From Bacteroidales bacterium (lineage in GTDB: Bacteria; Bacteroidota; Bacteroidia; Bacteroidales; WCHB1-69), in contig JAITUN010000298.1 of assembly GCA_031286285.1 (NCBI GenBank), forward strand, positions 1,799 through 65,798: a stretch of 64,000 nucleotides of DNA. Direction: 5' to 3'. Positions 4,787-29,919 of the stretch are shown one piece after another. How positions within the stretch are numbered: position 1 is the first letter of the stretch; every line of letters begins with the position of its first letter. The notes below the pieces were generated by a model. That model did not search any database and was not told where the DNA came from. It saw only the letters and a list, made by a program, of their open reading frames with translations. A program made the position numbers and the translations under genes.

Positions 4787-5911
4787 CTAAATTTTGTTTT
4801 TTATAGGATTAGCATAGATACCCAAAAAAATAGAACTGATAATATCTTTATCTCCATCTATATGATTTAAAACATGATAATATCTTTGCAAAAATTGTTC
4901 TTTTTCTTCAGGAGTATAGTAAGCTACAAATTTGTTTGTTTTTGAACGTAAATCATGCGCAATATAGTTGGTACTCCATAATTTATAGTTTTGGTAAATC
5001 CTTTTATCAGTTAAACGAGCCAAATTGCTATAAAATTTATTTGAAGAATCTTCTACAAGATTAATATATTCCTCTTTTTCAAGAGGTTTACAAATACTAA
5101 AATGCACATTTCCTTTTTGCTGGGTAATTCCCGTTAAAATACTTGTCAAATCTTCATTTATCTGTTTCTCATATTTTACACCTTGATTAGACAAATACAA
5201 CTCTTTTGTTTTGAACAAATCGCAAGGTTCCCACTGATAAGAAACGGAAACAGGAACAATATTAAGCTCTTCCACCGACTTCACTAGGTCTTTCCTGTTG
5301 CTCATGCAAAACATAGTTATAATTCCTTGGTCGGTAACATCGTTTCCATCTTTAGTACGTCCGTTCCTTTGAGCAATCCAAATAGATTCTCCTTTTTGTG
5401 TTAATGTATAACGTATATATTCAGATAGGCGCAATGAATTATTATAAAACTCGCGATTATTTCCACCTCTAATAACTTTAAACATTTTATTCGACTTGCC
5501 AATGTCAACAACCAATTGTGAACTCATGAGATTACTTCCGAAAGTGATTTCAGTAGTACGAAACCCATTATCATGCAATGCAGATTGCAGTAAGGAGGAA
5601 TCTAAAACTATATCACGATGGTTGGAAAGAAAAAGATAATTTTTCTGTGGATTTAAATACTCAAATCCACTGCAGGTAAACTCACTAACAGTTTGCTTAA
5701 TTACCTGTTTATTGAATGGGTACATAACGCCATATTGAAAATCGAAAATATTATTAAACTCCAACAACATTTCTTTCACTTCGCTCAATTTTTTTTCAGG
5801 AAATACGAACTTAGAAATTGCAGGAAATAATTCACTCTCAACTATACGCTTCATTGCAGGCATAATTTCAGCATCATTATACGGACGTAGATCGTCAAAG
5901 GTATTAGTCAT
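4787..5911 (-). CDS. PlsC/LPLAT-superfamily acyltransferase (glycerolipid-type acyltransferase)
   Basis: 374 aa. LSNHRDIVLDS resembles the HX4D acyltransferase box with one extra residue. A 4-bp ATGA overlap with the upstream ligase gene indicates translational coupling. Confidence 0.65.
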   Translation of the reverse strand: MTNTFDDLRPYNDAEIMPAMKRIVESELFPAISKFVFPEKKLSEVKEMLLEFNNIFDFQYGVMYPFNKQVIKQTVSEFTCSGFEYLNPQKNYLFLSNHRDIVLDSSLLQSALHDNGFRTTEITFGSNLMSSQLVVDIGKSNKMFKVIRGGNNREFYNNSLRLSEYIRYTLTQKGESIWIAQRNGRTKDGNDVTDQGIITMFCMSNRKDLVKSVEELNIVPVSVSYQWEPCDLFKTKELYLSNQGVKYEKQINEDLTSILTGITQQKGNVHFSICKPLEKEEYINLVEDSSNKFYSNLARLTDKRIYQNYKLWSTNYIAHDLRSKTNKFVAYYTPEEKEQFLQRYYHVLNHIDGDKDIISSIFLGIYANPIKNKI

Positions 5912-7212
5912 AAAGATTTTTTTTGTCGTTTGTCAATAATTTTAATAGGTTTTCGGCAAATATCAGGAGTAGTGATATCTTTTATTTGGGCAATCGTACA
6001 AATTTCAATTTCCGGTGCTACACGAATACGCGCCCTAAAGCGGTCTTTCATATCTTTAATGACGTCATATTCAGGCTCTTCTCTTAAACCAATTTTAATT
6101 AATATGTCATCATTTCCACACTCATCATCAAAAACTTCAACGAGATAATTTTCAATTAAAGAAACGTTGTCAATAACATCAAAAATAGCAGGAGGATAAA
6201 TAGTTGTACCTTTATATTTTATCATTTGATTAAGACGTCCAACAATAGGGCTTATTCTCATTGTAGTTCTGCCGCATTGACAAGTTTCATAGTGAAACTT
6301 TGCCAAATCTCCTGTTCTAAATCTCAGTAGGGGCATTCCTTCCACTCCGAGTGTAGTAATTGTGAGTTCACCGGTATCGCCTTTTGGAACGATATTTCCA
6401 TTTTCGTCAATCAATTCACAAATAATAAGTTCGGGGTGGTGATGTCCACCACATCCATACTTGCACTCTGTAAAACTGCTTGCCATTTCTGTTGAGGCGT
6501 ATGTTGAGTAAAGTTCAACATTCCACTTTTCTATTATACTTTGCCCGAGCAGATTCAATTTAAAATCCTGTTCTCTCAAATTTTCTCCGATACACACCAA
6601 TTTTTTAATACTTGAGTTTTTGTAATCTATTCCATTCTCTTCAGCATATTTGACGAGTTTCAGAATGAAAGATGGGACTAGAACGGCAATATTTGGTTTT
6701 ATCCGCTGAATAGTATCCCATTGCAATTCTGCGATTCCGTTCCCCACACGAATAACACTTGCTCCTAACTTTCTAATTCCCAAAAAGTACGCCAATCCTG
6801 CCATAAATCGCTTATCCATAGTGGTCATCAACTGAAAAATATCTCCGCTCTTAGCACCTGCGCACTCAAAGGATAATTTCTCGTTGTATGCCAAACGTTC
6901 CAAATCTGCTTCGGTCATTGCGAAAGTAACGGGATCGCTGAGTGTACCTGAAGTTGTTATATAATCAATTATTTTTTCTTTATGTACACAAAAAAAATCT
7001 TCATTGTAATATTGTAGGTCTGTTTTTTCAGTGAACGGTATTTGCTGTAAATCTTCAATTTTGTTAATTTTTTCTATATCAATTTTATTTTGCAAAAACA
7101 TCCGTTTATAAAATGGTGAATATTCTTTCAAATATTTCAGTGCTATTTTCAGTTTTTCTTCCTGAAAATGTTTGATTTCAAAAAAGGAACTATATTCGAT
7201 AGTGTTGTACAT
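5908..7212 (-). CDS. PaaK-like adenylate-forming enzyme (phenylacetate-CoA ligase / F390 synthetase family)
   Basis: 434 aa. Motifs TTSGTLSDPV (P-loop-like TSGTTG), YASTE, RFRTGDL and GRLNQMIKYKGTTIYPPAIFDV match the PaaK family layout. Confidence 0.8.
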   Translation of the reverse strand: MYNTIEYSSFFEIKHFQEEKLKIALKYLKEYSPFYKRMFLQNKIDIEKINKIEDLQQIPFTEKTDLQYYNEDFFCVHKEKIIDYITTSGTLSDPVTFAMTEADLERLAYNEKLSFECAGAKSGDIFQLMTTMDKRFMAGLAYFLGIRKLGASVIRVGNGIAELQWDTIQRIKPNIAVLVPSFILKLVKYAEENGIDYKNSSIKKLVCIGENLREQDFKLNLLGQSIIEKWNVELYSTYASTEMASSFTECKYGCGGHHHPELIICELIDENGNIVPKGDTGELTITTLGVEGMPLLRFRTGDLAKFHYETCQCGRTTMRISPIVGRLNQMIKYKGTTIYPPAIFDVIDNVSLIENYLVEVFDDECGNDDILIKIGLREEPEYDVIKDMKDRFRARIRVAPEIEICTIAQIKDITTPDICRKPIKIIDKRQKKSL

Positions 7213-7339
7213 TTTTGTATTGTTATTTAGCGCTTTGATATAATAATTAGCCTGTTGTAATAAATAAAATTATCTGATTTGTAGTTACAATATTATTCAT
7301 TAATTCAGTAAAATATGACATTTTGCATCATCTAAGAAT

Positions 7340-8155
7340 CTATAAATTATTAATAAAGTTCAAAAAATCAAAGATCCAACCCGTTGCTTTTCCAACAGGT
7401 TTGATTCCGAATCCGTGTCCACCATTTCTTGATTCATCAATCAACAAAAATTTATATTTTACATTATGCTCAATTAAAGCATTTTCAAAAACCACACTAT
7501 TTCTATAATCTACAGTTTTATCTCCTATACAATGTAAAAGAAATATGGGAGGTAAATTTGCATGCACATTCTTTTCTAAACTCATCAAATACTTTAATTC
7601 ATCTGTATAATTATTTCCTAGTAAATTTTTTCGAGATTTTTTATGTACAATACTATCATCCATAGATACAACTGGATAAATCATTGCAGTAAAATAGGGT
7701 TTCAATTGTGCTGCTGAATAGATTGCCGCCATCCCTGCCAAATGCCCACCGGCAGAAAAACCCATAATACCAATTTTATTAGGATTTATTCCATATTTTT
7801 CATTGTTATCTTTCAAAAAATTCATAGCATTTTCTAAATCCCGATACATGTCGGGATAATGGCATCCTTGTTTTGCAGTTCTATATTTCAATACAAAAGC
7901 CGGAATACCTTGTTTGTTAAGTTCTTTTGCAACTACAAACCCTTCATTGTTCATATCCAACCAATAGTAGCTTCCGCCGGGACAAATAATTACAGAAATA
8001 CCTTTACTGTCTTTTTTTATCGGTAAAAAAACAAATAGTTCGCTCCATTTTTGTTTTCGTGTTCTCTTTATCCTTTCCCAAATTTTTATACTTATCAGAA
8101 TCGAAAGAGATAAAAGACTGGCAACAAGAATTACACAAATAATTGTTTTTTTCAT
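7340..8155 (-). CDS. membrane-anchored alpha/beta hydrolase (esterase)
   Basis: N-terminal TM helix. Nucleophile elbow GFSAGGHLA (GxSxG), upstream CPGGSYYW oxyanion-type motif, and later GDKTVD and GGHGF (Asp/His candidates). Confidence 0.75.
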   Translation of the reverse strand: MKKTIICVILVASLLSLSILISIKIWERIKRTRKQKWSELFVFLPIKKDSKGISVIICPGGSYYWLDMNNEGFVVAKELNKQGIPAFVLKYRTAKQGCHYPDMYRDLENAMNFLKDNNEKYGINPNKIGIMGFSAGGHLAGMAAIYSAAQLKPYFTAMIYPVVSMDDSIVHKKSRKNLLGNNYTDELKYLMSLEKNVHANLPPIFLLHCIGDKTVDYRNSVVFENALIEHNVKYKFLLIDESRNGGHGFGIKPVGKATGWIFDFLNFINNL

Positions 8156-8164
8156 TATAGATTC

Positions 8165-8749
8165 TTATTTAGTGCTTAAATTCAAAAGCGCTCCAAAAGA
8201 TTTTCCGGCTGTTGCAAAGACCATTTTCAAACGTATAAATTCGTCCACTTGATAATCTGAAAATGGGCTACAAATTTTGTCCCACGAAAACTGAGTCACT
8301 AATGTATTCATATCCTCAGTCTTATAAAATTTATACACCACACTTACGAGTGCATCCTTTGAATAAGGACCTGCAAAATAACCGGGGACAATATTAACAA
8401 TTTTTACACAAAGAGTGTATTTTGCGTTAGAATAACTTTGACTTACAGACTTGTTTTTCAATTCATCATTACAATACTTAATAAAATTATTCATAAATTG
8501 TTTTCTCCACTCTCCTTCCCAATTCTTTTTCCATTCTTCTGCTTCTTTTGGTGTTTTTTCTTTTTCCATTCTTTTTTTAACGAAAATTTCTTCCGCTTTT
8601 CCATCCACAGTTACTCCATTAAAGTCAAATACTAGGTTTATTTTACTTTCATTGTCAAGAAAAGTAAGAGATCCTTTTTTTAATTTTTGAGCCGAAACGC
8701 TCGTCGCTACTAATGCTAGCAATACTACAAATAAAGATCTTAGTTTCAT
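8165..8749 (-). CDS. hypothetical secreted protein
   Basis: 194 aa with signal peptide MKLRSLFVVLLALVATSVSAQ. I recognise no motif. It is tightly packed in the minus-strand gene string. Confidence 0.5.
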   Translation of the reverse strand: MKLRSLFVVLLALVATSVSAQKLKKGSLTFLDNESKINLVFDFNGVTVDGKAEEIFVKKRMEKEKTPKEAEEWKKNWEGEWRKQFMNNFIKYCNDELKNKSVSQSYSNAKYTLCVKIVNIVPGYFAGPYSKDALVSVVYKFYKTEDMNTLVTQFSWDKICSPFSDYQVDEFIRLKMVFATAGKSFGALLNLSTK

Positions 8750-8781
8750 AAAAAATATTTTTTGGGTTAATACTAATGTTA

Positions 8782-9141
8782 TTAAATAAATAAATGTTTA
8801 GTCTCTTCTTTTGATAATTTTCGATAGTTTGTTTTCGAATTTTGGTTAAATATTACTTCATAATATTGTTCATCGTAAAAAGAAAGCACAGAATTAGTGT
8901 CAGGTGTACACTCTATGTAAATAATCTCCCTTAGATTCAATCCTTTTTTTTCACAAATCTGCATTGCGAGTTTAATACCTGCGGCAGTTACAGATGTTCC
9001 TGGATTATCTTGATACAGTTCAGTAACCACAACAATTTTTTTGTCATTATAATCCACTATTTTCAAACCGCATGCTGATTTTTGCTCCCACTCTCCGGCG
9101 AAAGAGAATATTTCGTCATAGTATTTTTCGGGTACTTTCAT
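8782..9141 (-). CDS. hypothetical protein
   Basis: 119-aa ORF directly downstream of the radical SAM gene on the same strand. No recognisable motif. Confidence 0.4.
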   Translation of the reverse strand: MKVPEKYYDEIFSFAGEWEQKSACGLKIVDYNDKKIVVVTELYQDNPGTSVTAAGIKLAMQICEKKGLNLREIIYIECTPDTNSVLSFYDEQYYEVIFNQNSKTNYRKLSKEETKHLFI

Positions 9142-9176: not shown

Positions 9177-10442
9177 TCATCTAACCACTTCTTTACCAAA
9201 ACTTTTGTTGATTAATCGTCTATCGCGGGGGCGGTAAGTTCCTTCTTTCATTTCGCGCATCATTACTTTTGTAAAGAGGCGCATCATTTTCTCTTCTTGC
9301 GATTCATTAGCATAAAAGATTTTCCATGCATAGTAGTATAGGTCTTGCAATTTTTCAGCGCTCATTTGTTTAGGATGAAAGACTACCTGTCCGGCATTGT
9401 AGTTATCCCAATCATAGTCAAAAATCCTATTATCTCTCATCAGGTCATCATATCCTTTGGTATGCGGAAAAGGAGTCATTACTGTAAACTCTGCTAAATC
9501 TAAATCAATTTCAAGAAGAAAGTCAATAAGTTGTTTAATATAATCTTCGCTATGATTATCAAGGCCTAAGAGGATAGTTCCTTCTACTCCAATTCCGTAA
9601 TCGTGGTACCGTTTCACTCGTTCTTTGATATAATCGGATGTATCGTAAACGGCTTGATAAACATACCATGCACCTGCTTGAGCTGCCAAATCAAGAATTT
9701 TGGGATTGTCTTCAATGGTGTGGCTAATCCAATTTTTTCTCAAAGGGATCATCTCCTTAAAAAGTTCAATTTCCCACTCATCATTTTGCGCCAACGAGTT
9801 ATCAACAATGAAAAGGCGATTGTTATCTATTGTTGTCAACTCTTCAATTACCTTATCCATAGGACGTGGGCGAAAGACACGACCCCCTAAATAAGATACT
9901 GCACAGGGGTAACAACTAAATCGGCATCCTCTAGAAGCATGAAAAAGGTCAACCATCTGTACCCCTTTATGGTTGTATAGCTCCTGTTTGTACAATTCTC
10001 GGCGAGCAGGACCTACTAATTCTATAGGTGGATGATTTCCCATGAAATTATAGACTTTTTTAAGTTTATCTTTTTTCAAATCATTAAAGACCTCTTCCAT
10101 TCTTCCTTCTGCTTCTCCAAGAAAAACAGAATCTGCATGTTCCATAGTTTCTTCTGCATGCAGCATGGTAGAAATCCCGCCAAAAATTACTTTTTTGCCT
10201 CTACGGCGAAACTCATCAGCAATTGCCCAGCCTCTTTTTACTTGTGAGCTTAGCATCATGGATACACCAACAAAATCGCAGGCTTCATCAAAATTGATTT
10301 CTTCCACATTTTCATCAGTAAAGCACACGTGCACATCCTCAGGTAATGTAGCTGCAAAGACAACAGGTCCGTGCGGTGGCAAGTTAAATGTTGTTTGCCC
10401 CGGTAATTTGTTCCATTTTGGATAAATTAGTTTGAACTTCAT
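9177..10442 (-). CDS. B12-binding-domain radical SAM enzyme
   Basis: 421 aa. CX3CX2C cluster motif in SRGCRFSCYPC. The N-terminal VGVSMMLSSQVKRGWAIADEFRRRGKKVIFGG resembles a cobalamin-binding Rossmann domain. Confidence 0.85.
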   Translation of the reverse strand: MKFKLIYPKWNKLPGQTTFNLPPHGPVVFAATLPEDVHVCFTDENVEEINFDEACDFVGVSMMLSSQVKRGWAIADEFRRRGKKVIFGGISTMLHAEETMEHADSVFLGEAEGRMEEVFNDLKKDKLKKVYNFMGNHPPIELVGPARRELYKQELYNHKGVQMVDLFHASRGCRFSCYPCAVSYLGGRVFRPRPMDKVIEELTTIDNNRLFIVDNSLAQNDEWEIELFKEMIPLRKNWISHTIEDNPKILDLAAQAGAWYVYQAVYDTSDYIKERVKRYHDYGIGVEGTILLGLDNHSEDYIKQLIDFLLEIDLDLAEFTVMTPFPHTKGYDDLMRDNRIFDYDWDNYNAGQVVFHPKQMSAEKLQDLYYYAWKIFYANESQEEKMMRLFTKVMMREMKEGTYRPRDRRLINKSFGKEVVR

Positions 10443-10454
10443 TGGTCAAGATAG

Positions 10455-10826
10455 TTATTGGTTAATAAACTGAATAGATAACTTGGCAAAACGATGCACA
10501 CTATTATGTACTACAGCGTTAATAATATGTGTCCCCATCTCTTCTGATGAAATGGAAATAGAAAAAGTTACCTCTCTGTTTTCCAAAGGATTAATTATAT
10601 TCAAAAATTTAATATTATCTATTCTTTTTAAAAAAAGGTTGCATTGTAACTTTTCTATTAATAGTTCTTTAATAATTTGAATTATACAGACTCCCGGTGT
10701 AATTGGATTTGCAGGAAAATGCGCTTCATAAATAAAGTGTTCGGGATTCAATTCGAGAACATAATCAAATCCTTTTTCTGTTTGATGAAAATTTTTTACA
10801 TAAAAAAAACTATCTTTAAGTTTCAT
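10455..10826 (-). CDS. FabZ/FabA-like hotdog-fold dehydratase
   Basis: 123 aa. HFPANPITPGVCIIQIIKE matches the FabZ catalytic HFPxxPxxPGVL motif. Confidence 0.7.
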   Translation of the reverse strand: MKLKDSFFYVKNFHQTEKGFDYVLELNPEHFIYEAHFPANPITPGVCIIQIIKELLIEKLQCNLFLKRIDNIKFLNIINPLENREVTFSISISSEEMGTHIINAVVHNSVHRFAKLSIQFINQ

Positions 10827-10843: not shown

Positions 10844-11923
10844 TTACTTTGATAAAAGAATAAATGTATGATTTTTGTTTTCAATATGGTTGTAGCAGAG
10901 AATTTTTGATTGACTCTGTAAGAATTGAGAACTACGGTTTTCTTGTGAAGAGTCATGCACATTGGATATCTGCTTTCTCGAGTTGCACATCAAAAAGTCG
11001 GGAATAGTACCTCTCCTCAAACAAGTTGCTGCCGCATAAACCCCCAGCGCGGACGCTGTGTAACTTTCTCCGAAAATATTTTTATATTGCAGGAGGGGGA
11101 TTTTGGGGAATAATTTCGCACAATTTTCAAAATAGATCTTGTCGTTTTCTTCCACTCCATTTACACCGATCATGATGAAATCAATATTCTTAATTTCTCT
11201 AATCGCAGTTATATCCTCCAACTTCAAAACTGCTCCAACGCCTTTATAAATTTTCTGCACTGCTTCAATTTTGCACAATGTTTTATCTGTATTTTTATTA
11301 GACAACATCATAGCTACTGCTGTTTCTCCAGCAAAGGTTTGCTTTGGGTTTCCCAGATAAGAAGTTTTTTTTAGTAGATTATAGTATGCCGGAGTCATTT
11401 CGTCATGTGCTCCTACCAATAGATTTCGAGTAGTTTTACTATTCACAATACTCTTATGGTGTAATTGTAAAAAGGCATCCAGTAGAGCACATTCAAAAGA
11501 GATTCCTTTATGGGCATAAGTACAGTTGTACGAATTACATTTTGAATCAATAGCGATTAGTGAACCAATAGTGTTATGTGTTGACTGCATGAAATGCGTA
11601 GGGTTAAGAAATTCTTCGCCATCACGGGTAAGTTTATCGAGAAATATCTCAGTACTTTCAATACATCCCAATCCTGTGCCTGTAATAATAGCATCAGGTG
11701 AAAGGACTCCACTTTCTTTCATTGTTAGTCTTGAAACAAGCAATGCTCTTTTGAGAATTTTTCCGTATCTGCGTACTTCGTTTGGTGTAAAAAAAAGTTT
11801 GTAGTCAGGTTCAATCGCTCTGATGTATGGTTCGGAATAAAAAGAAGGATTTTCAAACCAGTCATCCCACAAGGGTTGTTGGGCTGAAATATGTTTAACA
11901 GAGTTTATATAGGCGTTATTCAT
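10844..11923 (-). CDS. KS-like protein without active-site Cys (chain-length-factor-like partner)
   Basis: 359 aa thiolase-fold-like (ITGTGLGCIESTE, PTHFMQSTHNTIGSLIAI). The position of the KS nucleophile reads YAHKGISFECAL rather than xACxS. A 4-bp overlap links it to the upstream KS. Confidence 0.65.
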   Translation of the reverse strand: MNNAYINSVKHISAQQPLWDDWFENPSFYSEPYIRAIEPDYKLFFTPNEVRRYGKILKRALLVSRLTMKESGVLSPDAIITGTGLGCIESTEIFLDKLTRDGEEFLNPTHFMQSTHNTIGSLIAIDSKCNSYNCTYAHKGISFECALLDAFLQLHHKSIVNSKTTRNLLVGAHDEMTPAYYNLLKKTSYLGNPKQTFAGETAVAMMLSNKNTDKTLCKIEAVQKIYKGVGAVLKLEDITAIREIKNIDFIMIGVNGVEENDKIYFENCAKLFPKIPLLQYKNIFGESYTASALGVYAAATCLRRGTIPDFLMCNSRKQISNVHDSSQENRSSQFLQSQSKILCYNHIENKNHTFILLSK

Positions 11924-13203: not shown

Positions 13204-13319
13204 TTAGTGGTAATAAAACTCTACCGTCACTTTTCATGAATAAAAACCTCTATTTTTTTTATTTATAGTTTCATATAATAATCGTCTTAAAAAAATTTCT
13301 TTTATTTTAAAACAGTTTG

Positions 13320-13327
13320 CAAAATTA
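13320..13327 (-). promoter_or_regulatory. possible Bacteroidota -7 promoter box (TAATTTTG on the minus strand)
   Basis: Plus-strand caaaatta equals minus-strand TAATTTTG, matching TAnnTTTG. It lies in the only sizeable gap (177 bp) inside the cluster, 117 bp upstream of the KS ATG. No clear -33 TTTG. Confidence 0.25.
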
Positions 13328-13380
13328 TTTTTTTTTTCGATATTCATTAAGGTTTTTTAAATATGTGTTTTCTTTCTTCT

Positions 13381-21644: not shown

Positions 21645-23134
21645 AACCTACAATTTTTAATTTGCTCCCAAAGAAATTCTCGCCCGATAAGTTCAGAACA
21701 AGTGATGACTGAACCAATAATAACACCCATAATCCCATGAGAGTTCGTATTTTGCCCTGTAAAAAACAGATTAGGAATTCTTGTACGATGAACAATACGC
21801 GGAGTATTGACATTTCTTAACACACCATAAGCCGAACCTTTTATTGTTCCTGTATAATTCAAGTAAGTGAGGGGTGTTGATGTGTAATAATCCTCCACTT
21901 GGGCAAGTGTTCCGGGAAATTGAGCTTCTATTTGTAAAAGTAATTTCTCTGCCCTACGTTTTTTAAACTCTTTATAGGCCTCACCTCTTTGTTCAACCTT
22001 AGTACCAGCCCATTGAGCCACTTCTTCAAAATTCATAATTGTGATAATCTCTCCTGTTTGTGCATATCTGGAAAATTGTTCAGGACAAAGGTGCATATAA
22101 AGATAGCCCCTTGGCCAATCATCTGTCGTGTAGTTTTCACAATTCCACACTTCGTCTCCTGAATAATGATAAAAATTATGATTCATATAAGGCACCTTAT
22201 TTTCTTTAAATTTCAGATAAACTGTAAAATATGCAACTGTTTGTTCCATCTGATATATTCGATTTCGAAATATGGGACGGATTAAATGAGAATCAATCAT
22301 ATTAACAGTAATCTCAGGATGAGTATTAGAGATAAAATAATTAGCTTCCACGTGAGTGCCGTTTTCTAATACTATGCATTTTGCTTCAACACTGTTGCAA
22401 ACAATTTCACGTACTTTACTCGATAAAAAGATTTCACCACCAAATGAACGAATCGAATTTACCAATGAATTGGCAATTTTGTCACTCCCTCCCATAATCC
22501 GATACGCTCCTGAAATATTAGAATCTTTAATAAAAGCATGGACATATAAAGGCGTTTTTTCTTTTATTCCTGAATAAAGTGGAACTAATCCCACAAGTAC
22601 GTTTTGTAATATTTTATCTGAAGTAATTTGAGCTACAAAATCGCTAACCTTTGTAGTAGCATAGTTAGAATTGAATTGAAAAGATTCATCAGAATTGTTG
22701 ATAGAATGAAAAGGAGAACTGAGTACTATTTCTCTAATTTTTCTCGTATATAGTTTAATATTATTATACTCACTGGGAAATTTTTGTGACAATGTTTCAA
22801 TAAAGTTTTCATATCCAGTTGCATATTTATACTGCTCATTATTATATGAAATTATATCGAATCCTTCAGGGTCTAACGGATATAGTTTAATGTTTTGAAA
22901 AAGAGACAAGTACTTAAAGAATAGATGAAGAGTTTGCCCCTCATTCATACTACCAATATAATGCACTCCTGTTTCAAATTTAACACCTTTTCTTGTAAAT
23001 GTTTGCAAGCACCCTCCAGGTTGACTCCCTTGTTCAAAAACAGCAACTTTATATCCGTTTTTTGACAATATGTAACCACAAACAAGTCCACCCAAACCAC
23101 TTCCAATAATTACAACATCGTATTTATTATGCAT
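21641..23134 (-). CDS. CrtI/phytoene-desaturase-family FAD-dependent oxidoreductase, copy B
   Basis: 497 aa. VVIIGSGLGGLVCGYILSKNGYKVAVFEQGSQPGG. Collinear with copy A (WNCxxYTxxxWPRG, FFTGQNTNSHGIMG). A 4-bp overlap links it to copy A. Confidence 0.8.
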   Translation of the reverse strand: MHNKYDVVIIGSGLGGLVCGYILSKNGYKVAVFEQGSQPGGCLQTFTRKGVKFETGVHYIGSMNEGQTLHLFFKYLSLFQNIKLYPLDPEGFDIISYNNEQYKYATGYENFIETLSQKFPSEYNNIKLYTRKIREIVLSSPFHSINNSDESFQFNSNYATTKVSDFVAQITSDKILQNVLVGLVPLYSGIKEKTPLYVHAFIKDSNISGAYRIMGGSDKIANSLVNSIRSFGGEIFLSSKVREIVCNSVEAKCIVLENGTHVEANYFISNTHPEITVNMIDSHLIRPIFRNRIYQMEQTVAYFTVYLKFKENKVPYMNHNFYHYSGDEVWNCENYTTDDWPRGYLYMHLCPEQFSRYAQTGEIITIMNFEEVAQWAGTKVEQRGEAYKEFKKRRAEKLLLQIEAQFPGTLAQVEDYYTSTPLTYLNYTGTIKGSAYGVLRNVNTPRIVHRTRIPNLFFTGQNTNSHGIMGVIIGSVITCSELIGREFLWEQIKNCRL

Positions 23135-23161: not shown

Positions 23162-26100
23162 TTATTTTCCAAACAGTCGTAAATTATTTTCAATCTTCAA
23201 ATTCACTACAGCATCAAAACTTTCAATCTCTTTGTCTTCAATTGTTAAGGCATAGTGCAAATAAGAAGGCACAGAAGTGCAGTTAGCTGCTAATTCCAAC
23301 TTATCAGGGTCACTTTCAACAGCCATTATCTCAATATTTTTATTTACTAGAGAAAGTAGCAACGGTAATTCTCCATATCCGCAATTTAAAATGAGAACCC
23401 TTTTTAAATGGGATAATTTGTAGATTAACTCACAATAATTATGGTATTTTTTTAGATTTCGACGTACAATACGCTCCACCGATATTCCTTTGTAAATATA
23501 GTTATGAATCACTAAATCAGAGTAATAATTAGGAGTTTCGACTTTTGCCACCAATTTTGCGTACTCCTCTTTATAGAACTTTCTCATATTTTTTGAACAC
23601 TCCACATAATTCTCTCCCAAAGCATTGTATGCTACTCTTGGCAAAACATTGATTCGCATTTCGCCTTTACGTAACATAAACTCTTTTTTGGGCAAGAGAT
23701 GCCCTACGCCATGAATGAGTACGGGTATAATATCTAATTTTAGATGCTCTGCTAATAAAAACGCTCCACGATGAAAACGTTGTATAGAGCAATCTTCGGA
23801 GCGTGTGCCTTCTGGAAAAATCATTATCGAATACCCTTTTTCCACAATAGCTTGCAACTTGTCTATTGCATTTTCAATACCATTTGAGACAGGGTAAAAA
23901 TCTGCATATTTAATGAGTTTACCATAAAACGGCGAATTCCAAACCCAATCGTTAGTTAGAATAATTAATTTCGGTGAAAGACTCATGATGCACATTAAAT
24001 CAATATGTGACTGATGATTACAAATTATCACAGCAGGTTTATCAAATATGGTCTTGTCAAAATTGTTGTAAATTGTTTTTACACGAGGAATTCGCATCAC
24101 AACATAATGGGCTACTTTATAAATTAAGCGATGAAACCGCATTTTCTTTTTATCTGTAGTTTTTCCAAAAGTAAATACGAAAAAACCAGCTAAGGTAAGA
24201 AAAAAAGTTCCCAAAAGAAATACCACAAATGCATAGATTGAATAAGATAGATTGAGCAAAGTAATGGGCATTAATCTCTGTTTACCATTATGTTTCGTAA
24301 GCCATTTGAAAATAACCTGGGGTAACAAGAATGCCATAAGTACAACAGACCCCATTCCAATAATAGTAACTTCTGCCAACGAACGCAACGCTGGATGTTT
24401 AGCCAAAATAAGAGTACCAATTCCCACAAACATAACAAGTGACGACAAGGTAATAGTGTTTTTATATGAAACAAGCAATTTTCTTTTGTAAGCATATTCG
24501 TATATCAAGCCTTCAGTAATAAAAATGGTATAGTCATCCCCTTGTCCAAAAATAAAAGTTGCTAGAATAATGTTTACAATGTTAAAACGAATATCTAAAA
24601 TATCCATGATTCCAAGTATCCAAAACCACCCGACAGTAAGGGGGAGAAAAGCAAGCAGTGTCAATTCTATTCTTCCAAATGTGAAAAGAAGAAAAAGAAA
24701 AACAATTGTACTACATATAAAGAGTACTCTGTCAAAATCATTTGAAAGTGTACTAACCATATTTCGTCCTATGGTTCCGACGTCAAAAGCAAAAGATTTT
24801 TTGTGTATGGCATTTAAAGCATCTTCCAACTCATCCAATTCATTAGAATTTGTATGCAGAACTGCCATTACCATATAATTACCTTTTTTGTTCACAATGT
24901 AATTATGGGCTAACGTGGCTATAAGCGGTTCAAAAAAATCGATATCATGCAATTCGAAATTTTTGCTAAGGATATTGTTGAATCTTGAAAATGCACCCGA
25001 TATAAAGCCTGCTTCCACTCCAATTTCATCAATTTGAGCAAGAATATCCTTCTTTTTTTCGCAAAACTGTTTCCAACATTCAACTCTTTTCTTTTGCATT
25101 GTTTTCGAAGGCAAGTAAGCTCCTACCCCACTCACTTTCGTGACTATTCCCACATTTTGCATACTATCTAACGTTATCTTTGCATTCTCGAAAACTTCCA
25201 AAGCCTCATCCATGTTTTCACCATTAGAAACAAAATAGATTGTTTTTTGCCCCTGCTCTAAAGTAGAAATCATTTTCTTAAAATCTTTTTGCTGGGTTTC
25301 AGTCATATAGTTTATGTTTTGCATATTTGTATCAAACTTTGTATTGAAACTAAGTAAGCAAAACAGTATGGTTAACGCAAGAAAAACCCATAAGAACCAT
25401 TTTCTGCGTTTGGGCTTCCAAGAAAGAAGTTTACCAAAGGTAAGTTTATGTTCATCAAGAGTTGAATTTGTATTGATACTTTTTCCTAACAGGTGAGGAA
25501 GAAACAAAAGCACAAAAAAGATTGTTCCTGCAAGCAACAAGGCTGCAAAAAGTCCTAAATCGTGCATAGCTTCGCTGCTGATAAACAGGAGGCTCAAAAA
25601 AGCGCCAACAGTAGTAATATTTCCAATCGTTAGCGGGGTAACAATATTTTTAATGACATTAGGGATATGCGATTCATGTTTCCTGTTCATGATGAAATGT
25701 AAAGGATAATTCACTGCCACTCCAATAATTATCGAACTGATACCCACTGCAATAATTGAAATTTCATTTTTAAAGAGAGAGAGAATTCCAATAGCAAATA
25801 GCCAGCCGAACAGTAGCGAAATGAACATCAAAAGCAAATTTTTCGAACTTCTGAAAGCAAAAATCAAAATACTTAAAATAAGTATAATAGCAATAATACA
25901 AGAGATCAAACTGTCTTTTTTTATTCTTTTTGAATTAGTAACTGCAATATCCACAGACCCAAAGTAATGTACTTTGATTTTATAATCAAAATTTGAATGT
26001 GTTTGAGCTGCTACCTTGTCTATTAATCTCAACAGCAATTCATTTTGGCGTGTTTCACTGGGCGGAAACTGCGATTCAATTGTAATAATTGCCTCTTTTC

Positions 26101-26731
26101 TATCTTTAGAAAAAATAAAATCGTTGCACATTTGAAACTGATCACTTACTTGAAAATCTCTCAAGCCCATCAAAACTGACGACGACAAGTGTAGTGGGTC
26201 ATTCATTATGTTTTGCTTCATTACCATTCCGATTGGCAACATGAGCATCTGCTTATTGTTATGCATCTGCTGCCTGACATACTCTATTGTCAGCAAAGTG
26301 TCCATACGGTTATAATCTTGTTCTGTAAAAAAGTAGGGCATATTCTCCACCAAAAAATTTGATACAGAAAGAATTTGTTGCTGGTCAATCCGAAATTCAA
26401 TTTTTTTATAATAGATATTTGCCGAATCTTCTTTTTGCATTAGTTCAGCAAAAAAACAAACAGCTTCTATAATCAGTTCTTCATCGGGGCAAGCGAGAGT
26501 ATCCGACATACTTACAGTAACTAACAGTTTGTTTGCCGAGCCTATATGCTGGTACACATAGTTTATTCGTTCTGTATCATGTTCTTTTGATAAGAATGCC
26601 GAAATATCTTCTTTAAAACTGATACGGGAAGCCGAAAAAATGAGCAATAGAATCAATAAAATCAACAAACAGAACATCATCACTTTGTGTTTAGTGAAGA
26701 AGTTGTAGAGAGAAAGGATAAAATTGTCCAT
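23162..26731 (-). CDS. three-part fusion: MMPL/RND-like exporter + PlsC-type acyltransferase + short SAM-methyltransferase-like tail
   Basis: 1189 aa. About 850 aa hold two TM bundles typical of MMPL exporters. A canonical HX4D box follows (ICNHQSHIDLM, near residue 905; FPEGTRS further on). The C-terminus carries motif-I-like VLILNCGYGE and MAVESD (near residue 1110). Confidence 0.8.
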   Translation of the reverse strand: MDNFILSLYNFFTKHKVMMFCLLILLILLLIFSASRISFKEDISAFLSKEHDTERINYVYQHIGSANKLLVTVSMSDTLACPDEELIIEAVCFFAELMQKEDSANIYYKKIEFRIDQQQILSVSNFLVENMPYFFTEQDYNRMDTLLTIEYVRQQMHNNKQMLMLPIGMVMKQNIMNDPLHLSSSVLMGLRDFQVSDQFQMCNDFIFSKDRKEAIITIESQFPPSETRQNELLLRLIDKVAAQTHSNFDYKIKVHYFGSVDIAVTNSKRIKKDSLISCIIAIILILSILIFAFRSSKNLLLMFISLLFGWLFAIGILSLFKNEISIIAVGISSIIIGVAVNYPLHFIMNRKHESHIPNVIKNIVTPLTIGNITTVGAFLSLLFISSEAMHDLGLFAALLLAGTIFFVLLFLPHLLGKSINTNSTLDEHKLTFGKLLSWKPKRRKWFLWVFLALTILFCLLSFNTKFDTNMQNINYMTETQQKDFKKMISTLEQGQKTIYFVSNGENMDEALEVFENAKITLDSMQNVGIVTKVSGVGAYLPSKTMQKKRVECWKQFCEKKKDILAQIDEIGVEAGFISGAFSRFNNILSKNFELHDIDFFEPLIATLAHNYIVNKKGNYMVMAVLHTNSNELDELEDALNAIHKKSFAFDVGTIGRNMVSTLSNDFDRVLFICSTIVFLFLLFTFGRIELTLLAFLPLTVGWFWILGIMDILDIRFNIVNIILATFIFGQGDDYTIFITEGLIYEYAYKRKLLVSYKNTITLSSLVMFVGIGTLILAKHPALRSLAEVTIIGMGSVVLMAFLLPQVIFKWLTKHNGKQRLMPITLLNLSYSIYAFVVFLLGTFFLTLAGFFVFTFGKTTDKKKMRFHRLIYKVAHYVVMRIPRVKTIYNNFDKTIFDKPAVIICNHQSHIDLMCIMSLSPKLIILTNDWVWNSPFYGKLIKYADFYPVSNGIENAIDKLQAIVEKGYSIMIFPEGTRSEDCSIQRFHRGAFLLAEHLKLDIIPVLIHGVGHLLPKKEFMLRKGEMRINVLPRVAYNALGENYVECSKNMRKFYKEEYAKLVAKVETPNYYSDLVIHNYIYKGISVERIVRRNLKKYHNYCELIYKLSHLKRVLILNCGYGELPLLLSLVNKNIEIMAVESDPDKLELAANCTSVPSYLHYALTIEDKEIESFDAVVNLKIENNLRLFGK

Positions 26732-26761
26732 TGAAAAAATAACTAATTCTAAAATAGGTTT

Positions 26762-27523
26762 TTACTTAAAAATGGATTTGCTCTTGTTAACCAAGTATCT
26801 TATAAACTTCGTCGGATATCCATAAACCACTGCCAAAAAAGTAAACAGTGTATTGAGCAAACTGATACGTAAAAAATCAACGCCCGGGCGGAAATGGCTT
26901 ACTCTCTTCTCATCGGAGGCATAATAAACCCGAATAGGCACTGAAATCACTTTGATACCGCTCCATGCACAGCGCACAAGCATCTCTAATTCAGCTTCAT
27001 AACGTGATGTTATTGGACGAAGTCTCCTCATCTTTTCTAAAGGATACAAACGAAATCCGCTTTGAGTATCGGGCAGTTTTTGCCCTGTTTGTAAAGCAAA
27101 CCAAAAATTGGAAAATTTGTTTGCAAAACTGTTTTTCTTCGGCATATTATCCTGTGTCAGGTTTCTATTGCCCACCACCATCGTATCCGGTTCATTTTGT
27201 GCTACTTTCACAAATAAAGGAATATCATCGGCAAAATGTTGCCCATCCGAGTCGAGGGTTAAAGCATATTTGAAGCCTCTCTCTTGTGCGTAATCAAATC
27301 CACATTTCAGCGCAAACCCTTTTCCTCTGTTAATAGTGTATGAGATTATTCTAATTTTCTCACGAAATAGATCAAGTATTTCGTTTGTATTATCAGTTGA
27401 CCCGTCGTTAACTACTACTATTTCAAAATCATATTCCAACACAGAATCAATTACTGCGGCCACTGTTTTTGCATTATTAAAAGTAGGAATTACGACACAA
27501 ATGCCTAAATTACTCATAGTCAA
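26762..27523 (-). CDS. family 2 glycosyltransferase
   Basis: 253 aa. CVVIPTFNNAKT, VVVNDGSTDNT and LDSDGQH (the DxD region) are typical of GT2. Confidence 0.85.
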   Translation of the reverse strand: MTMSNLGICVVIPTFNNAKTVAAVIDSVLEYDFEIVVVNDGSTDNTNEILDLFREKIRIISYTINRGKGFALKCGFDYAQERGFKYALTLDSDGQHFADDIPLFVKVAQNEPDTMVVGNRNLTQDNMPKKNSFANKFSNFWFALQTGQKLPDTQSGFRLYPLEKMRRLRPITSRYEAELEMLVRCAWSGIKVISVPIRVYYASDEKRVSHFRPGVDFLRISLLNTLFTFLAVVYGYPTKFIRYLVNKSKSIFK

Positions 27524-28052
27524 TTCTAATTAATGTATAGTTGATGGCTCTCTTTTTATTTTTATAGATAATTTTTCCATCGGGTAGCCTTTTAAGTTCT
27601 TTTCGGTTTTTATAGATAACCGATAAAGTATCTTGAGCAGATACTCTCACACTTTTTATACCTTCTTCATACTTAGGGTTATCAATCTCCATAATAAACT
27701 GAATATCTGATGCAATTACTCTTTTCACATACCATTTATCAAGAAAGGAGATTACGTTCATCAATTCACATTTTTGTGGCGTAGAAACAAAGTCGAAAAC
27801 CTTAACTCCGAACTCATTGATTATGGTTCCTTTCCACAATCCATTGCTTTGTTTAACAATACAGATGCTTGAAATATTGGTTTTTGGAGTTGAGAATATG
27901 AGTCGATACTCGTTTTTTTGTATAGTATCTCTAATTTCCGTTCTCCAAAACGAAATAAGGTTTGTTTTCGGACCAATTACCATATTATTGGAAGAGGTAC
28001 AAGCAAAAAAAAGAGCTATGAAAAGACTACTGAATAGCAAATACCTCATCAC
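27510..28052 (-). CDS. hypothetical lipoprotein
   Basis: 180 aa. Lipobox-like LFFAC at the end of the signal peptide. It overlaps both neighbours (14 and 26 bp), so the exact start is uncertain. Confidence 0.5.
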   Translation of the reverse strand: MMRYLLFSSLFIALFFACTSSNNMVIGPKTNLISFWRTEIRDTIQKNEYRLIFSTPKTNISSICIVKQSNGLWKGTIINEFGVKVFDFVSTPQKCELMNVISFLDKWYVKRVIASDIQFIMEIDNPKYEEGIKSVRVSAQDTLSVIYKNRKELKRLPDGKIIYKNKKRAINYTLIRIDYE

Positions 28053-28671
28053 TCAATTCTTTATTTATCTGTTTGTTTTTCATCTCAATAAGTGTAATAT
28101 CTCCGTTAGGTTCTTCAATTTCTACTGAATTTACGGTATAATCGGTTTTGTTAAAACGCAAACGAATTTCATTGAACATCAATGCGAGCTCTTTCTGTTT
28201 AGGTTTCAAAATCACCATATTATCTTTCGTACCTGTTTTAAATTGAAATAGAAACTTTGAGGTGTCAAAAATTCCGGAACCATTAATACCTGCGACAATA
28301 ATATTGCTTATCTCTTTGAACAGTTTATTTGAGTTGATATTAATCACATTTTTGGTTGTTCCTGAATTGAGCATCACTTTGTCTCCATTTATGATAAACT
28401 CATATTGATAGGGTTTTATATATTCCCATTTAAGTTTATCATTTTGCTTAAAAAACAGTCTTCCTTCTGAAACCATTTCGTCTGCAAGAATTGAAATTGT
28501 TTTCTTTTGGACAAAATCGCAACGCAATGTATGCAAATTCACAGACGATTCATTAATATTCTGTATCATCTCTTTTTGTTGCTGTTCTGAAGCAGGTTTA
28601 TAGTCAGATTGTGCCTTAGCAGAAGAAATAATTGTTAATATGCATAGGAAGAGAGTGATGAGTTTTTTCAT
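28027..28671 (-). CDS. LolA-like outer-membrane lipoprotein carrier family protein
   Basis: 214 aa with a signal peptide. FVQKKTISILADEMVSEGRLFFKQNDKLKWEYIKPYQYEFIINGDKV follows the LolA-family pattern seen in aryl-polyene/flexirubin clusters. Confidence 0.7.
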   Translation of the reverse strand: MKKLITLFLCILTIISSAKAQSDYKPASEQQQKEMIQNINESSVNLHTLRCDFVQKKTISILADEMVSEGRLFFKQNDKLKWEYIKPYQYEFIINGDKVMLNSGTTKNVININSNKLFKEISNIIVAGINGSGIFDTSKFLFQFKTGTKDNMVILKPKQKELALMFNEIRLRFNKTDYTVNSVEIEEPNGDITLIEMKNKQINKELSDEVFAIQ

Positions 28672-28675
28672 GTTT

Positions 28676-29029
28676 TTATTTTACAACAAAAACCACGCCG
28701 GCAATAATCAGACCTACACCAATCCATCTTGTAAGTGGTACTGTTTCGTGAAAGATAAATATTGCTGCTAACATTCCAAAAACGTATGCAAATGCTGTAA
28801 TAGGATATGCAACAGAAAACTCAAAGTGTTTCATGATGAACCCCCACAAAAGTGTTGCTGCAATTAGGCAAATGCCACTAACAAGCAACCACCAGTTTGT
28901 AAACAAGTTAGCAAAATCGTTCCACGTCCATTGAAAACTATTTATTTTCTCTACAGCAAGTTTAAAACAAACCAACCCGCTTGCTAATAAAAAACATTGA
29001 AACAGGGTTAGAAAAATTACTCTTAACAT
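28676..29029 (-). CDS. small 4-TM DMT/EamA-like membrane protein
   Basis: 117 aa, four hydrophobic helices. Size and pattern resemble ArnE/F- or SMR-like half transporters. Confidence 0.5.
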   Translation of the reverse strand: MLRVIFLTLFQCFLLASGLVCFKLAVEKINSFQWTWNDFANLFTNWWLLVSGICLIAATLLWGFIMKHFEFSVAYPITAFAYVFGMLAAIFIFHETVPLTRWIGVGLIIAGVVFVVK

Positions 29030-29071
29030 CAGAACTGTGAATTATGAAATTGAATTGTAAGATCTACAGCA

Positions 29072-29329
29072 TTATTTTGTTCTGTTTGCCACAATATACT
29101 CGGCCATCACCCTTATTGATTTAAAAACCTCTTTACCTTGGTTAGGATCTTGGAGTTTGATTCCATAATTTTTTTCCATAAGCACAATGAGTTCTAAAGC
29201 ATCAATTGAGTCCAAGCCTAATCCTTCTCCAAAAAGCGGCGCATTCTCATCTATTTCTTCCGGTTTAATATCCTCTAAATTAAGGACTTCAATAATTTCT
29301 TCTTTCAATTTTAAGATTAGTTCTTCCAT
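29072..29329 (-). CDS. acyl carrier protein
   Basis: 85 aa, acidic, with the attachment motif LGLDSIDALELIV. Confidence 0.85.
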   Translation of the reverse strand: MEELILKLKEEIIEVLNLEDIKPEEIDENAPLFGEGLGLDSIDALELIVLMEKNYGIKLQDPNQGKEVFKSIRVMAEYIVANRTK

Positions 29330-29358
29330 ATAATAAAAATTAGATATTTAAAATTACT

Positions 29359-29919
29359 TTAATTGTTATACAGTTTCAATATTTTCTCTTCTGCAAACTC
29401 AAAACTTCCTGCACTATTATCAACCAACATCATCAATACCTCACGTTTGTCTTCAAAGTATTCAATCCAAGCTGCCAAAACAGCATTTACACTTTTGTTA
29501 TTAAAACTGTTATTAATTGTTCGTAGTATTAGTTTAGTATCAAAATTTTTGCAAATATAGAAAAATGACTCACCGAAAAATCTATTTCTGATAGCAATTT
29601 CACCATTAACTATATTTGGCAGGGTGTAAACGAAGTGCGACGGGGATGGAAAATAGTTATCATTATTATTTATTGTTGCTTGATACTGAGCATCTGTGTC
29701 GAGAGAAGAGGAGCTATTAAAACAAATGACCGCAATATTTTCATTGGGTTCAAAACGGTTCTCATCATCTTTTAATATCATTTCTGAAGCCAAAAATCCA
29801 AGTTTGGATAGTCCATCCATCTTGTAGAATTTTGGGTAATCAATTTTAAGAGAACGGTATAATTCCATTATTTCTTGTGAAGTTTGGAAAGAGAGTTTTA
29901 TTTGTTTTTTTATAATCAT
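29359..29919 (-). CDS. small KS-N-terminal-like protein (no catalytic Cys evident); first gene of the cluster
   Basis: 186 aa. SPSHFVYTLPNIVNGEIAIRN resembles the PxxFxxSxxN...GxIxI motif of CLF-like thiolase-fold fragments. A 260-bp ORF-free region lies upstream. Confidence 0.45.
   Translation of the reverse strand: MIIKKQIKLSFQTSQEIMELYRSLKIDYPKFYKMDGLSKLGFLASEMILKDDENRFEPNENIAVICFNSSSSLDTDAQYQATINNNDNYFPSPSHFVYTLPNIVNGEIAIRNRFFGESFFYICKNFDTKLILRTINNSFNNKSVNAVLAAWIEYFEDKREVLMMLVDNSAGSFEFAEEKILKLYNN

Follow-up and report, generated by a model that had tools for sequence, protein, structure and literature searches.

A flexirubin-like gene block of a Bacteroidales bacterium and the uncharacterised B12-radical SAM module that it shares with anaerobic relatives

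Aryl-polyene and flexirubin gene clusters are among the commonest biosynthetic gene clusters in gut and oral metagenomes. Here we describe a related block of 27 genes in a 64,000-nucleotide stretch of DNA from a Bacteroidales bacterium (GenBank assembly GCA_031286285.1, contig JAITUN010000298.1, positions 1,799 to 65,798), the whole of which is termed the window and in whose own numbering all positions are given. Judged by its protein families and gene order, the block probably makes up the greater part of a flexirubin-type pathway to an aryl-polyene lipid, in a form characteristic of anaerobic Bacteroidales. Its true departures from the characterised clusters are a B12-binding radical SAM (rSAM) enzyme, a 119-amino-acid partner protein and an esterase, and these are a property of a large Bacteroidales family rather than of this locus alone.

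The flexirubin clusters of Chitinophaga pinensis (flxA-Y with darA-J) and Flavobacterium johnsoniae (Fjoh_1075-1110; McBride 2009, cited therein) are set out in the supplementary tables of Schoner 2014 (PMC3992019). Such clusters hold the PaaK-like ligase FlxY, which in C. pinensis was shown biochemically to be a 4-coumarate-CoA ligase, alongside FlxU, FlxT, FlxQ, DarG, the BtrH-like protein DarH, DarI/J and DarC-E (PMC3992019). For the aryl-polyene (APE) clusters, passages of Grammbitter 2020 (10.1101/2020.12.19.423268) define a core set of ketosynthase (KS; ApeO/R), acyl carrier protein (ACP; ApeE/F), chain-length factor (CLF; ApeC), dehydratase (DH; ApeI/P), ketoreductase (KR; ApeQ) and transporter (ApeM). 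The same passages describe the aryl-polyene lipid (APEL) of Xenorhabdus, in which the second ACP bears a conjugated C26:5 acyl chain, an acyltransferase and a glycosyl/acyltransferase link the two chains on a GalNAc-phosphate-glycerol scaffold, and export is by an RND pump with LolA/LolB-like proteins. A third point of comparison is provided by the FASII-like clusters of Kuenenia stuttgartiensis and Desulfotalea psychrophila, the products of which are hypothetical and have been discussed as ladderane or anaerobic polyunsaturated lipids (Rattray 2009, PMC2649909). Genome mining has shown that uncharacterised 'arylpolyene' clusters abound in Prevotella and in other anaerobic communities of gut and mouth, where they are reported as class counts alone (PMC13455363, PMC9964075); the antiSMASH 'arylpolyene' clusters of Prevotella and other gut or oral Bacteroidales probably belong to the same family as the block described here. 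The literature searched yielded no paper giving gene-level features or a product for this rSAM-containing Bacteroidales cluster.

The assignment to the flexirubin type is carried by six proteins that pass NCBIfam cut-offs for flexirubin or dialkylresorcinol families, namely FlxY, LolA2, two DarH and two DarG-family proteins. Around these, the block shares with flexirubin clusters the type II KS/CLF/ACP/DH polyene machinery, a CrtI-family flavoenzyme (FlxV, with Pfam family membership as the sole basis of the likeness), an export set comprising an MMPL-acyltransferase fusion (FlxU), a family 2 glycosyltransferase (GT2; FlxT), LolA (FlxQ) and a LolB-like protein (FlxR), and an accessory set comprising DarG, BtrH-like DarH and the ABC/ABC-2 pair DarI/J, together with a second KS/ACP set (DarC-E). 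It differs from them in having no FlxA, FlxB, DarA/DarB, FlxW (C45), FlxP, FlxE, thioesterase or halogenase in the window, in adding the rSAM, the 119-amino-acid partner, a secreted 194-amino-acid protein, a BD-FAE esterase, an ArnE-like protein and a PlsC-like acyltransferase, in the doubling of the CrtI-like and DarG/DarH genes, in gene order and in its anaerobic host. An initial sequence-only reading of the window had presented the CrtI-like pair, the rSAM, the PaaK-like ligase, the esterase, the ABC-2 exporter and the BtrH-like genes as standing instead of the missing hallmarks. Most of these are usual members of the clusters of C. pinensis and F. johnsoniae: the ligase, CrtI-like enzymes, BtrH-like DarH and ABC-2 exporter are standard, the window's ligase, LolA and BtrH-like proteins pass the equivalog cut-offs for flexirubin families, and only the rSAM and the esterase on that list depart from the known set. 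The 27 genes are given below, with NCBIfam figures as score against curated cut-off ('x > y' passes, 'x < y' is below).

g01, 29359-29919, minus strand: candidate truncated CLF/KS-like protein (unk186) of 186 amino acids without the Cys, the block's first gene; weak CLF alignment.
g02, 29072-29329, minus strand: ACP1, carrier protein of aryl-polyene type; PP-binding; NF006617 PRK09184 87.7 > 70.
g03, 28676-29029, minus strand: small EamA/ArnE-like membrane protein of 117 amino acids, putative lipid-linked-sugar flippase subunit; EamA 31.9 bits.
g04, 28027-28671, minus strand: LolA2, periplasmic carrier; NF053544 LolA2_flexi 199.4 > 125; Pfam LolA; signal-peptide-like N-terminus.
g05, 27510-28052, minus strand: LolB2-like lipoprotein; lipobox LFFAC; NF053540 LolB2_flexi 35.6 < 60.
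g06, 26762-27523, minus strand: GT2 of polyprenyl-phosphate-sugar synthase type; Glycos_transf_2 E = 1e-29.
g07, 23162-26731, minus strand: MMPL/RND exporter fused to a PlsC-type acyltransferase, FlxU/ApeM-like, 1189 amino acids; MMPL and Acyltransferase domains; HpnN-like.
g08, 21641-23134, minus strand: CrtI/CrtD-like FAD enzyme a; Amino_oxidase and NAD_binding_8; CrtD and carotenoid-isomerase models below cut-off.
g09, 20118-21644, minus strand: CrtI/CrtD-like FAD enzyme b, 36% identical to g08; Pfam/NCBIfam.
g10, 18856-20091, minus strand: KS1, FabB/FabF-like catalytic ketosynthase; motifs AACASG / AHATST / TGHECW (Cys/His/His).
g11, 18611-18859, minus strand: ACP2; PP-binding; ACP models.
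g12, 18176-18610, minus strand: DH1, FabZ-like hotdog dehydratase; FabZ models 35 bits, below cut-off.
g13, 17794-18159, minus strand: DarG-family protein a; NF053536 DarG_fam 81.7 > 70; flexirubin_DarG 86.7 < 170.
g14, 16764-17774, minus strand: DarH a, BtrH-related acyltransferase; NF053550 DarH_acyl 358.6 > 300; BtrH_N and DUF4872.
g15, 16375-16752, minus strand: DarG-family protein b, 51% identical to g13; DarG_fam 75.6 > 70.
g16, 15365-16378, minus strand: DarH b, 60% identical to g14; DarH_acyl 356.5 > 300; BtrH_N and DUF4872.
g17, 14628-15377, minus strand: ABC ATPase in the DarI position; ABC_tran; DrrA/NodI-like.
g18, 13381-14631, minus strand: ABC-2 permease in the DarJ position; ABC2_membrane_3.
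g19, 11920-13203, minus strand: KS2, catalytic ketosynthase of aryl-polyene type; motifs TACSSA / AHGTGT / TGHTTS; best match NF006618 PRK09185 312.6 < 407.
g20, 10844-11923, minus strand: CLF-like partner without the Cys; Ketoacyl-synt_2.
g21, 10455-10826, minus strand: DH2, FabA/ApeI-like dehydratase; FabA 24.2 bits; ApeI-like 14.1 bits against a cut-off of 28.5 (below).
g22, 9177-10442, minus strand: B12-binding radical SAM enzyme; Pfam/NCBIfam; motif CRFSCYPC.
g23, 8782-9141, minus strand: 119-amino-acid rSAM partner (unk119).
g24, 8165-8749, minus strand: 194-amino-acid secreted protein (unk194); signal-peptide-like N-terminus; homologs in 17 loci.
g25, 7340-8155, minus strand: membrane-anchored or exported serine hydrolase like BD-FAE/acetyl-esterases; BD-FAE E = 5e-25; GFSAGG; hydrophobic N-terminus.
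g26, 5908-7212, minus strand: FlxY, PaaK-like aryl-acid (4-coumarate)-CoA ligase; NF053551 FlxY_rubin 694.1 > 520 over a full-length alignment.
g27, 4787-5911, minus strand: PlsC-like acyltransferase, the block's last gene; Acyltransferase 23.5 bits.

The Pfam and NCBIfam matches, with the visible Cys/His/His motifs of the ketosynthases, agree with the domain inventory and the aryl-polyene/flexirubin-type architecture first read from the sequence. The inventory's two KS-like proteins without the Cys correspond to the CLF-like g20 and, by weak CLF alignment, to g01. The latter has no Pfam or NCBIfam match; a weak BLASTP alignment to the CLF active-site region (E = 9e-4), in which the Cys is lacking, and the JGI label of its homologs (n=4370), '3-oxoacyl-ACP synthase', suggest that it is KS/CLF-like, whilst its AlphaFold2 (AF2) model is poor (pLDDT 57.6). 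The dehydratase g12 has no Pfam match and is 35% identical to a PF22817 ApeP-like protein of a related locus, L085; homologs of g21 in L085 and two further loci, L081 and L087, match PF22818. Neither g23 nor g24 matches a Pfam or NCBIfam family. Several matches are below cut-off, including those of g03 to the ArnE and ArnF models (E = 2e-13 and 2e-8), of g06 to its best NCBIfam families (AglJ, PpgS and ArnC-like) and of g25 to the AxeA1 and PaeX models. The combination of GT2, the ArnE/F-like g03 and the exported acetyl-esterase-type g25 recalls the ArnC-ArnD-ArnE/F scheme, in which a lipid-linked sugar is made, deacylated and flipped; classical flexirubin clusters have the polysaccharide deacetylase FlxP where the block has the esterase.

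Comparison with the APE/APEL clusters of E. coli CFT073 and Xenorhabdus doucetiae, as far as they are described in the passages of Grammbitter 2020, gives a similarly partial match. Two KS, a CLF, two ACPs and two hotdog dehydratases, here putatively of ApeI/ApeP type, are shared, as are an aryl-acid ligase, a glycosyltransferase, a glycerolipid-type acyltransferase and an RND/MMPL exporter with LolA-like and LolB-like partners (10.1101/2020.12.19.423268). Set against these clusters, the window lacks an ApeQ-type KR, the SAM methyltransferase ApeB and a thioesterase; its starter is probably 4-coumarate, given FlxY, and not 4-hydroxybenzoate; and those passages name no DarG/DarH/ABC module, CrtI-like pair or rSAM among the ape genes. 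On the evidence of the window, the block resembles both flexirubin and APE clusters but can be classed as a complete member of neither, because FlxA, FlxB and the DarA/DarB pair of the former and the KR of the strict core of the latter are missing. No characterised cluster matches its exact gene set and order, and a product different from the characterised pigments, as first proposed, is plausible.

The absence of the hallmark genes, first noted for the block, extends to the whole 64-kb window. Pfam searches of the other large open reading frames (ORFs) and tblastn with proteins of relatives found no tyrosine ammonia-lyase (TAL; PF00221, the FlxA type), no short-chain dehydrogenase/reductase (SDR) ketoreductase (adh_short; FlxB/ApeQ type) and no ORF like DarA or the KSIII DarB, and tblastn found no 4HBT thioesterase (TE) or second, TIGR04072-type rSAM (rSAM2) in the window; the queries FlxA, FlxB, TE, rSAM2, DarA-like and DarB gave chance-level matches alone (E >= 0.28).

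What this absence signifies was judged from relatives, 97 fetched loci of which were compared with the 27 proteins by tblastn. The rSAM relatives retained, 80 loci in all, come from Bacteroidales or unclassified Bacteroidia, save one contig labelled Treponema (L062), and many are of termite-gut, rumen or digester origin. The source of the window is itself most likely a Lentimicrobiaceae-like organism living in termite gut. Carriers include Lentimicrobiaceae, Tannerella (among them T. forsythia ATCC 43037), Prevotellaceae, Bacteroidaceae, Rikenellaceae, Marinifilaceae, Odoribacteraceae, Paludibacter, Dysgonomonadaceae and Parabacteroides. The usual order is unk186-ACP1-KS2-CLF-EamA-LolA2-(LolB2)-DH2-GT2-MMPL_AT-CrtIa-(CrtIb), followed by rSAM-unk119-(unk194)-esterase-FlxY-AT, in which MMPL_AT is the MMPL-acyltransferase fusion and AT the acyltransferase at which the clusters consistently end, the genes after it in relatives being unrelated. 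Adjacency is well conserved: g01 adjoins ACP1 in 20/21 loci, KS2 adjoins CLF in 19/19, the g07 homolog adjoins GT2 in 28/28, the CrtI-like pair is adjacent in 9/9 loci carrying both, and FlxY is flanked by the esterase in 35/36 and by the g27 acyltransferase in 36/40.

In some of these relatives the missing genes stand directly beside the same core. In L083, FlxA-FlxB-4HBT thioesterase-KS (FlxA 858 > 700; FlxB 406.6 > 340) lies immediately upstream of a g01 homolog that is 65% identical, and is followed by unk186-ACP-CLF-EamA-LolA-LolB2-DH-GT2-MMPL_AT; in L090, where the g01 homolog is 71% identical, the order is FlxA-FlxB-KS1-ACP2-rSAM2-ApeP-like-TE-KS0-unk186-ACP1. FlxA and/or FlxB are also found in L073 (Odoribacter), L026 and L012. 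Resorcinol-type genes are met in Tannerella, where in 7-8 loci the rSAM is separated from DarG-DarH-ABC-ABC2 by a 306-332-amino-acid ORF and a StlD/DarB-family KS (StlD/DarB 525 > 450; resorcinol_DarB 543 < 550), an order that mirrors darA-darB-darG-darH-darI-darJ of C. pinensis.

Elsewhere the pathway is dispersed. In metagenome-assembled genomes (MAGs) of Lentimicrobiaceae the pathway genes lie in small scattered operons, with unk186-ACP1-KS2 alone between GAPDH and Tex and with MMPL_AT-CrtI-rSAM-unk119-esterase-FlxY-AT on a separate contig, and in L087 an inverted DarH-ABC module comes after the core. In the cluster of a Lentimicrobiaceae MAG, a small inserted KilA-N ORF separates the EamA-like gene from LolA (L081 414-686). 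In the window itself, five junctions (ACP1>EamA, CrtIb>KS1, DarHa>DarGb, ABC2>KS2 and DH2>rSAM) occur in no other organism's fetched locus, the sole match to ACP1>EamA being L082, a contig of the same organism, which shows rearrangement. From this comparison of gene orders, the window is a lineage-specific re-assembly that fuses three modules usually separate, and the five-gene head block of relatives (FlxA, FlxB, rSAM2, TE and KS0) has been lost from this position.

Since FlxA, FlxB and DarB lie beside the same core in relatives and modules are scattered, absence from one locus says little, and it is weak evidence that the pathway lacks these genes. Cluster fragmentation and rearrangement is, on balance, the best explanation for the missing hallmark genes: FlxA, FlxB, TE and rSAM2, with DarA/DarB in some lineages, are most likely encoded elsewhere in the genome as parts of a split cluster, and not replaced. 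Several observations weigh against this view and against the flexirubin-type assignment. The placement of FlxA, FlxB and DarAB elsewhere is presumed, the search having covered 64 kb of a contig of 87,251 bp; counterparts of FlxW (C45) and FlxP (the deacetylase) are likewise absent from the window by Pfam; LolB2_flexi and flexirubin_DarG score below their cut-offs, at 35.6 < 60 and 86.7 < 170; and no product was reported for any such anaerobic Bacteroidales cluster in the literature searched. In the T. forsythia type strain ATCC 43037, moreover, the rSAM-DarG-DarH-ABC-ABC2 unit (L036) is without the 306-amino-acid ORF and the DarB-family KS (corresponding interval 11278-11349) and stands alone, with no DarAB or polyene genes within 10 kb either side, which shows that reduced gene sets exist. 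T. forsythia OH1426 has that ORF and KS between rSAM and DarG (L017 11294-13369), such that the pair is a presence/absence difference between strains of a culturable pathogen.

The main rival possibility, in line with the initial reading, is that the genome truly has no TAL, dedicated KR or DarA/DarB and that the block is self-sufficient, making a different outer-membrane lipid. The starter would then be scavenged, for example as p-coumarate or ferulate derived from the lignocellulose of a termite gut and perhaps released by g25, and FlxY would activate it; ketoreduction would fall to housekeeping FabG, and DarH or the acyltransferases would esterify the polyene to a non-resorcinol acceptor. 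This fits with the lack of any trace of FlxA, FlxB, TE, rSAM2 or DarAB in 64 kb, with 27 intact ORFs, with the DarAB-less unit of ATCC 43037, with the membership of g25, with its export anchor, in the feruloyl/acetyl-xylan-esterase family, and with closest relatives that are termite-gut MAGs (the best rSAM match, 88%, is in a termite-gut Lentimicrobiaceae MAG, L001). It also fits with the upstream neighbour, which is an aspartate kinase here and likewise in a second, independent contig from this organism. An identical g01 with the same upstream spacing was found in a Logan contig, and a metagenome scan with g01 returned only 6 loci. However, the scatter of pathway genes in the nearest lineages tells against reading much into one locus, a lineage-specific rearrangement could have moved the FlxA-FlxB block and not deleted it, and the Odoribacter locus carries the same esterase together with FlxA, so the esterase is no TAL substitute in general. 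The idea that it replaces TAL by freeing coumarate is weakened accordingly, and self-sufficiency is a possible but clearly less likely account than a split cluster.

It is extremely unlikely that the block has lost its initiation genes and is now a non-functional or decaying remnant. Such an origin would account for the missing head genes, but the 27 ORFs are without frameshifts or truncations, all having conserved homologs against which they are full length (coverage near 1.0), the catalytic motifs of the ketosynthases, rSAM and esterase are intact, and tight translational coupling has been kept.

Because FlxA, FlxB, TE and rSAM2 lie beside the same genes in relatives, the real oddity of the block is the very conserved B12-radical SAM enzyme common to the family, of whose proteins it is the most conserved. 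An exact-match search of public assemblies for the window's own rSAM protein gave nothing. The enzyme has 6247 homologs at 80-88% identity, which collapse to a handful of representatives at 50% clustering, and relatives in at least 523 GTDB species representatives, nearly all of them anaerobic Bacteroidales. Its mean identity is 80.5%, compared with 51.2% for the other cluster proteins in the same loci. Beyond its own family identity falls to 30-38%, to proteins with generic B12-rSAM names from Aminicenantes and Planctomycetales MAGs, and it has no sequence match in the PDB. The partner gene unk119 directly follows the rSAM in 54/57 loci; its AF2 model is confident (pLDDT 85), and a Foldseek search of that model against PDB folds gave no match (TM <= 0.34). 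A 53%-identical rSAM ortholog occurs in L095 (a contig of Logan SRR22746133), in a different cluster of aryl-polyene-like type that also encodes a TAL, a CrtI-like enzyme, a 723-amino-acid KS-CLF fusion, ApeI/ApeP-like dehydratases, two more radical SAM genes and a PS-DH/ACPS fusion, which argues that the rSAM is a dedicated part of TAL-initiated polyene pathways in anaerobes. The run rSAM-unk119-esterase-FlxY-acyltransferase is an uncharacterised, family-wide module.

In the manner of the Kuenenia and Desulfotalea clusters, the block might make a non-aryl product, an anaerobically formed polyunsaturated or radical-modified acyl chain or hydrocarbon, with the CrtI-like pair desaturating and the rSAM modifying a saturated chain. 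Those clusters likewise belong to anaerobes and encode several ACPs, FabF paralogs whose active sites deviate, radical SAM enzymes and a pair of amine-oxidase/CrtI-like flavoenzymes (Rattray 2009, PMC2649909). Their joining of FabF paralogs with two radical SAM enzymes and two phytoene-desaturase-like flavoenzymes is the precedent for the combination seen here of two CrtI-like enzymes, a B12-rSAM, divergent KS paralogs and ACPs. Relatives, moreover, encode an equivalog of TIGR04072, 'lipid biosynthesis B12-binding/radical SAM' (408.5 > 360), as the second rSAM in L085 (1868-3217), L090 and L073. The window rSAM, however, belongs to another subfamily, and its identification as a ladderane-type TIGR04072 enzyme was rejected, as it scores 44.6 bits against a cut-off of 360. 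Furthermore, the window has an aryl-acid ligase and relatives have TAL: the FlxY equivalog within the block and the FlxA equivalogs adjacent to it in relatives tie the family to a tyrosine-derived aryl starter. With the Kuenenia/Desulfotalea chemistry itself never demonstrated, a non-aryl product is very unlikely.

Returning to a flexirubin-type pathway, a route can be proposed in which gene content, families, synteny and conservation are observed and every chemical step is inferred by homology to the flexirubin system of C. pinensis and the APEL systems of Xenorhabdus and E. coli. FlxY (g26) would convert 4-coumarate or a close hydroxycinnamate to its CoA thioester, which KS2/CLF (g19/g20), with ACP1 (g02), g01 and the hotdog dehydratases g21 and g12, would extend with malonyl units to a 4-hydroxyphenyl-polyene on ACP1. 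KS1/ACP2/DH1 (g10-g12) may build a second acyl or conjugated chain. Attachment of the chains to an acceptor (a lipid or sugar-lipid) would be the work of the two DarH proteins (g14 and g16), related to BtrH and its ACP-dependent acyl transfer, of the two acyltransferases of PlsC type, g27 and the C-terminal part of g07, and of the GT2 with the ArnE-like protein (g06 and g03). Delivery to the outer membrane would fall to the MMPL portion of g07, the ABC-2 pump (g17, g18), LolA2 (g04) and LolB2 (g05). Tailoring of the chain or ring may be done by the two CrtI-like enzymes together with the rSAM and its 119-amino-acid partner, and we would guess at an O2-independent C-methylation or other radical step. 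Starter formation and ketoreduction would come from FlxA and FlxB encoded elsewhere or, were the block self-sufficient, from a scavenged hydroxycinnamate and FabG.

The arrangement of the block is compact. As initially described, all 27 ORFs lie on the minus strand at 4787-29919 and are intact, with overlaps of 4-26 bp, found at nine junctions; most other gaps are 0-42 bp, and two are wider, at 177 bp (13204-13380) and 127 bp (7213-7339). No terminator-like site was found in the minus-strand intergenic regions inside the block by a terminator scan. Terminator and sigma-70 counts in the block are no different from those of shuffled sequence, and Bacteroidota promoters deviate from the sigma-70 consensus, so these scans neither prove nor disprove a single operon. 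Within the 177-bp gap, upstream of KS2 (g19), the sequence TAATTTTG is found at 13313-13320 (minus), which fits TAnnTTTG, the Bacteroidetes-type -7 promoter box. Between 4700 and 30200 this motif has one other occurrence (23152) that is not wholly within a cluster ORF. The match in the gap hints at a putative promoter inside the cluster, at a point where two modules meet.

Outside the block, the genes of the window have housekeeping functions by Pfam and NCBIfam, including aspartate kinase, RadC, PorZ, RecO, thiolase, ASD, LepA and GDH, among others. An AcrB-type RND pump at 1684-4743 (plus strand; ACR_tran 993 bits) converges on the cluster's end, and the G+C content of its region is 0.41-0.44, compared with about 0.33-0.35 for the cluster. 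Type IX secretion genes lie nearby, encoding an 807-amino-acid protein with a type IX C-terminal sorting domain (31442-33865) and a PorZ-like beta-propeller protein (40464-42818).

For the interpretation first placed on this locus, the value of the analysis is mainly corrective, in that the missing hallmarks speak of a fragmented and rearranged cluster and not of demonstrably new chemistry. A more far-reaching reading would be that anaerobic Bacteroidales, among them T. forsythia, Prevotellaceae and groups of the rumen and termite gut, have refitted the flexirubin/aryl-polyene pathway with O2-independent B12-radical SAM chemistry, through g22 and its 119-amino-acid partner and, in relatives, a second, ladderane-type rSAM, to make an outer-membrane polyene lipid of a structure not seen before, and that this genome does so from scavenged plant hydroxycinnamates, without TAL, KR or resorcinol genes of its own; taken as a whole, we regard this as distinctly unlikely. 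The family itself is an anaerobe-specific elaboration of the flexirubin/aryl-polyene pathway, common in public genomes and uncharacterised. Clusters of anaerobic Bacteroidales share a module of B12-radical SAM enzyme, 119-amino-acid orphan protein, esterase, FlxY and acyltransferase that is absent from every characterised system, and the rSAM within it is under unusually strong constraint (about 80% identity across families). Because it is carried by medically relevant species that can be cultured, T. forsythia among them, the module offers a concrete target for genetics and lipidomics.

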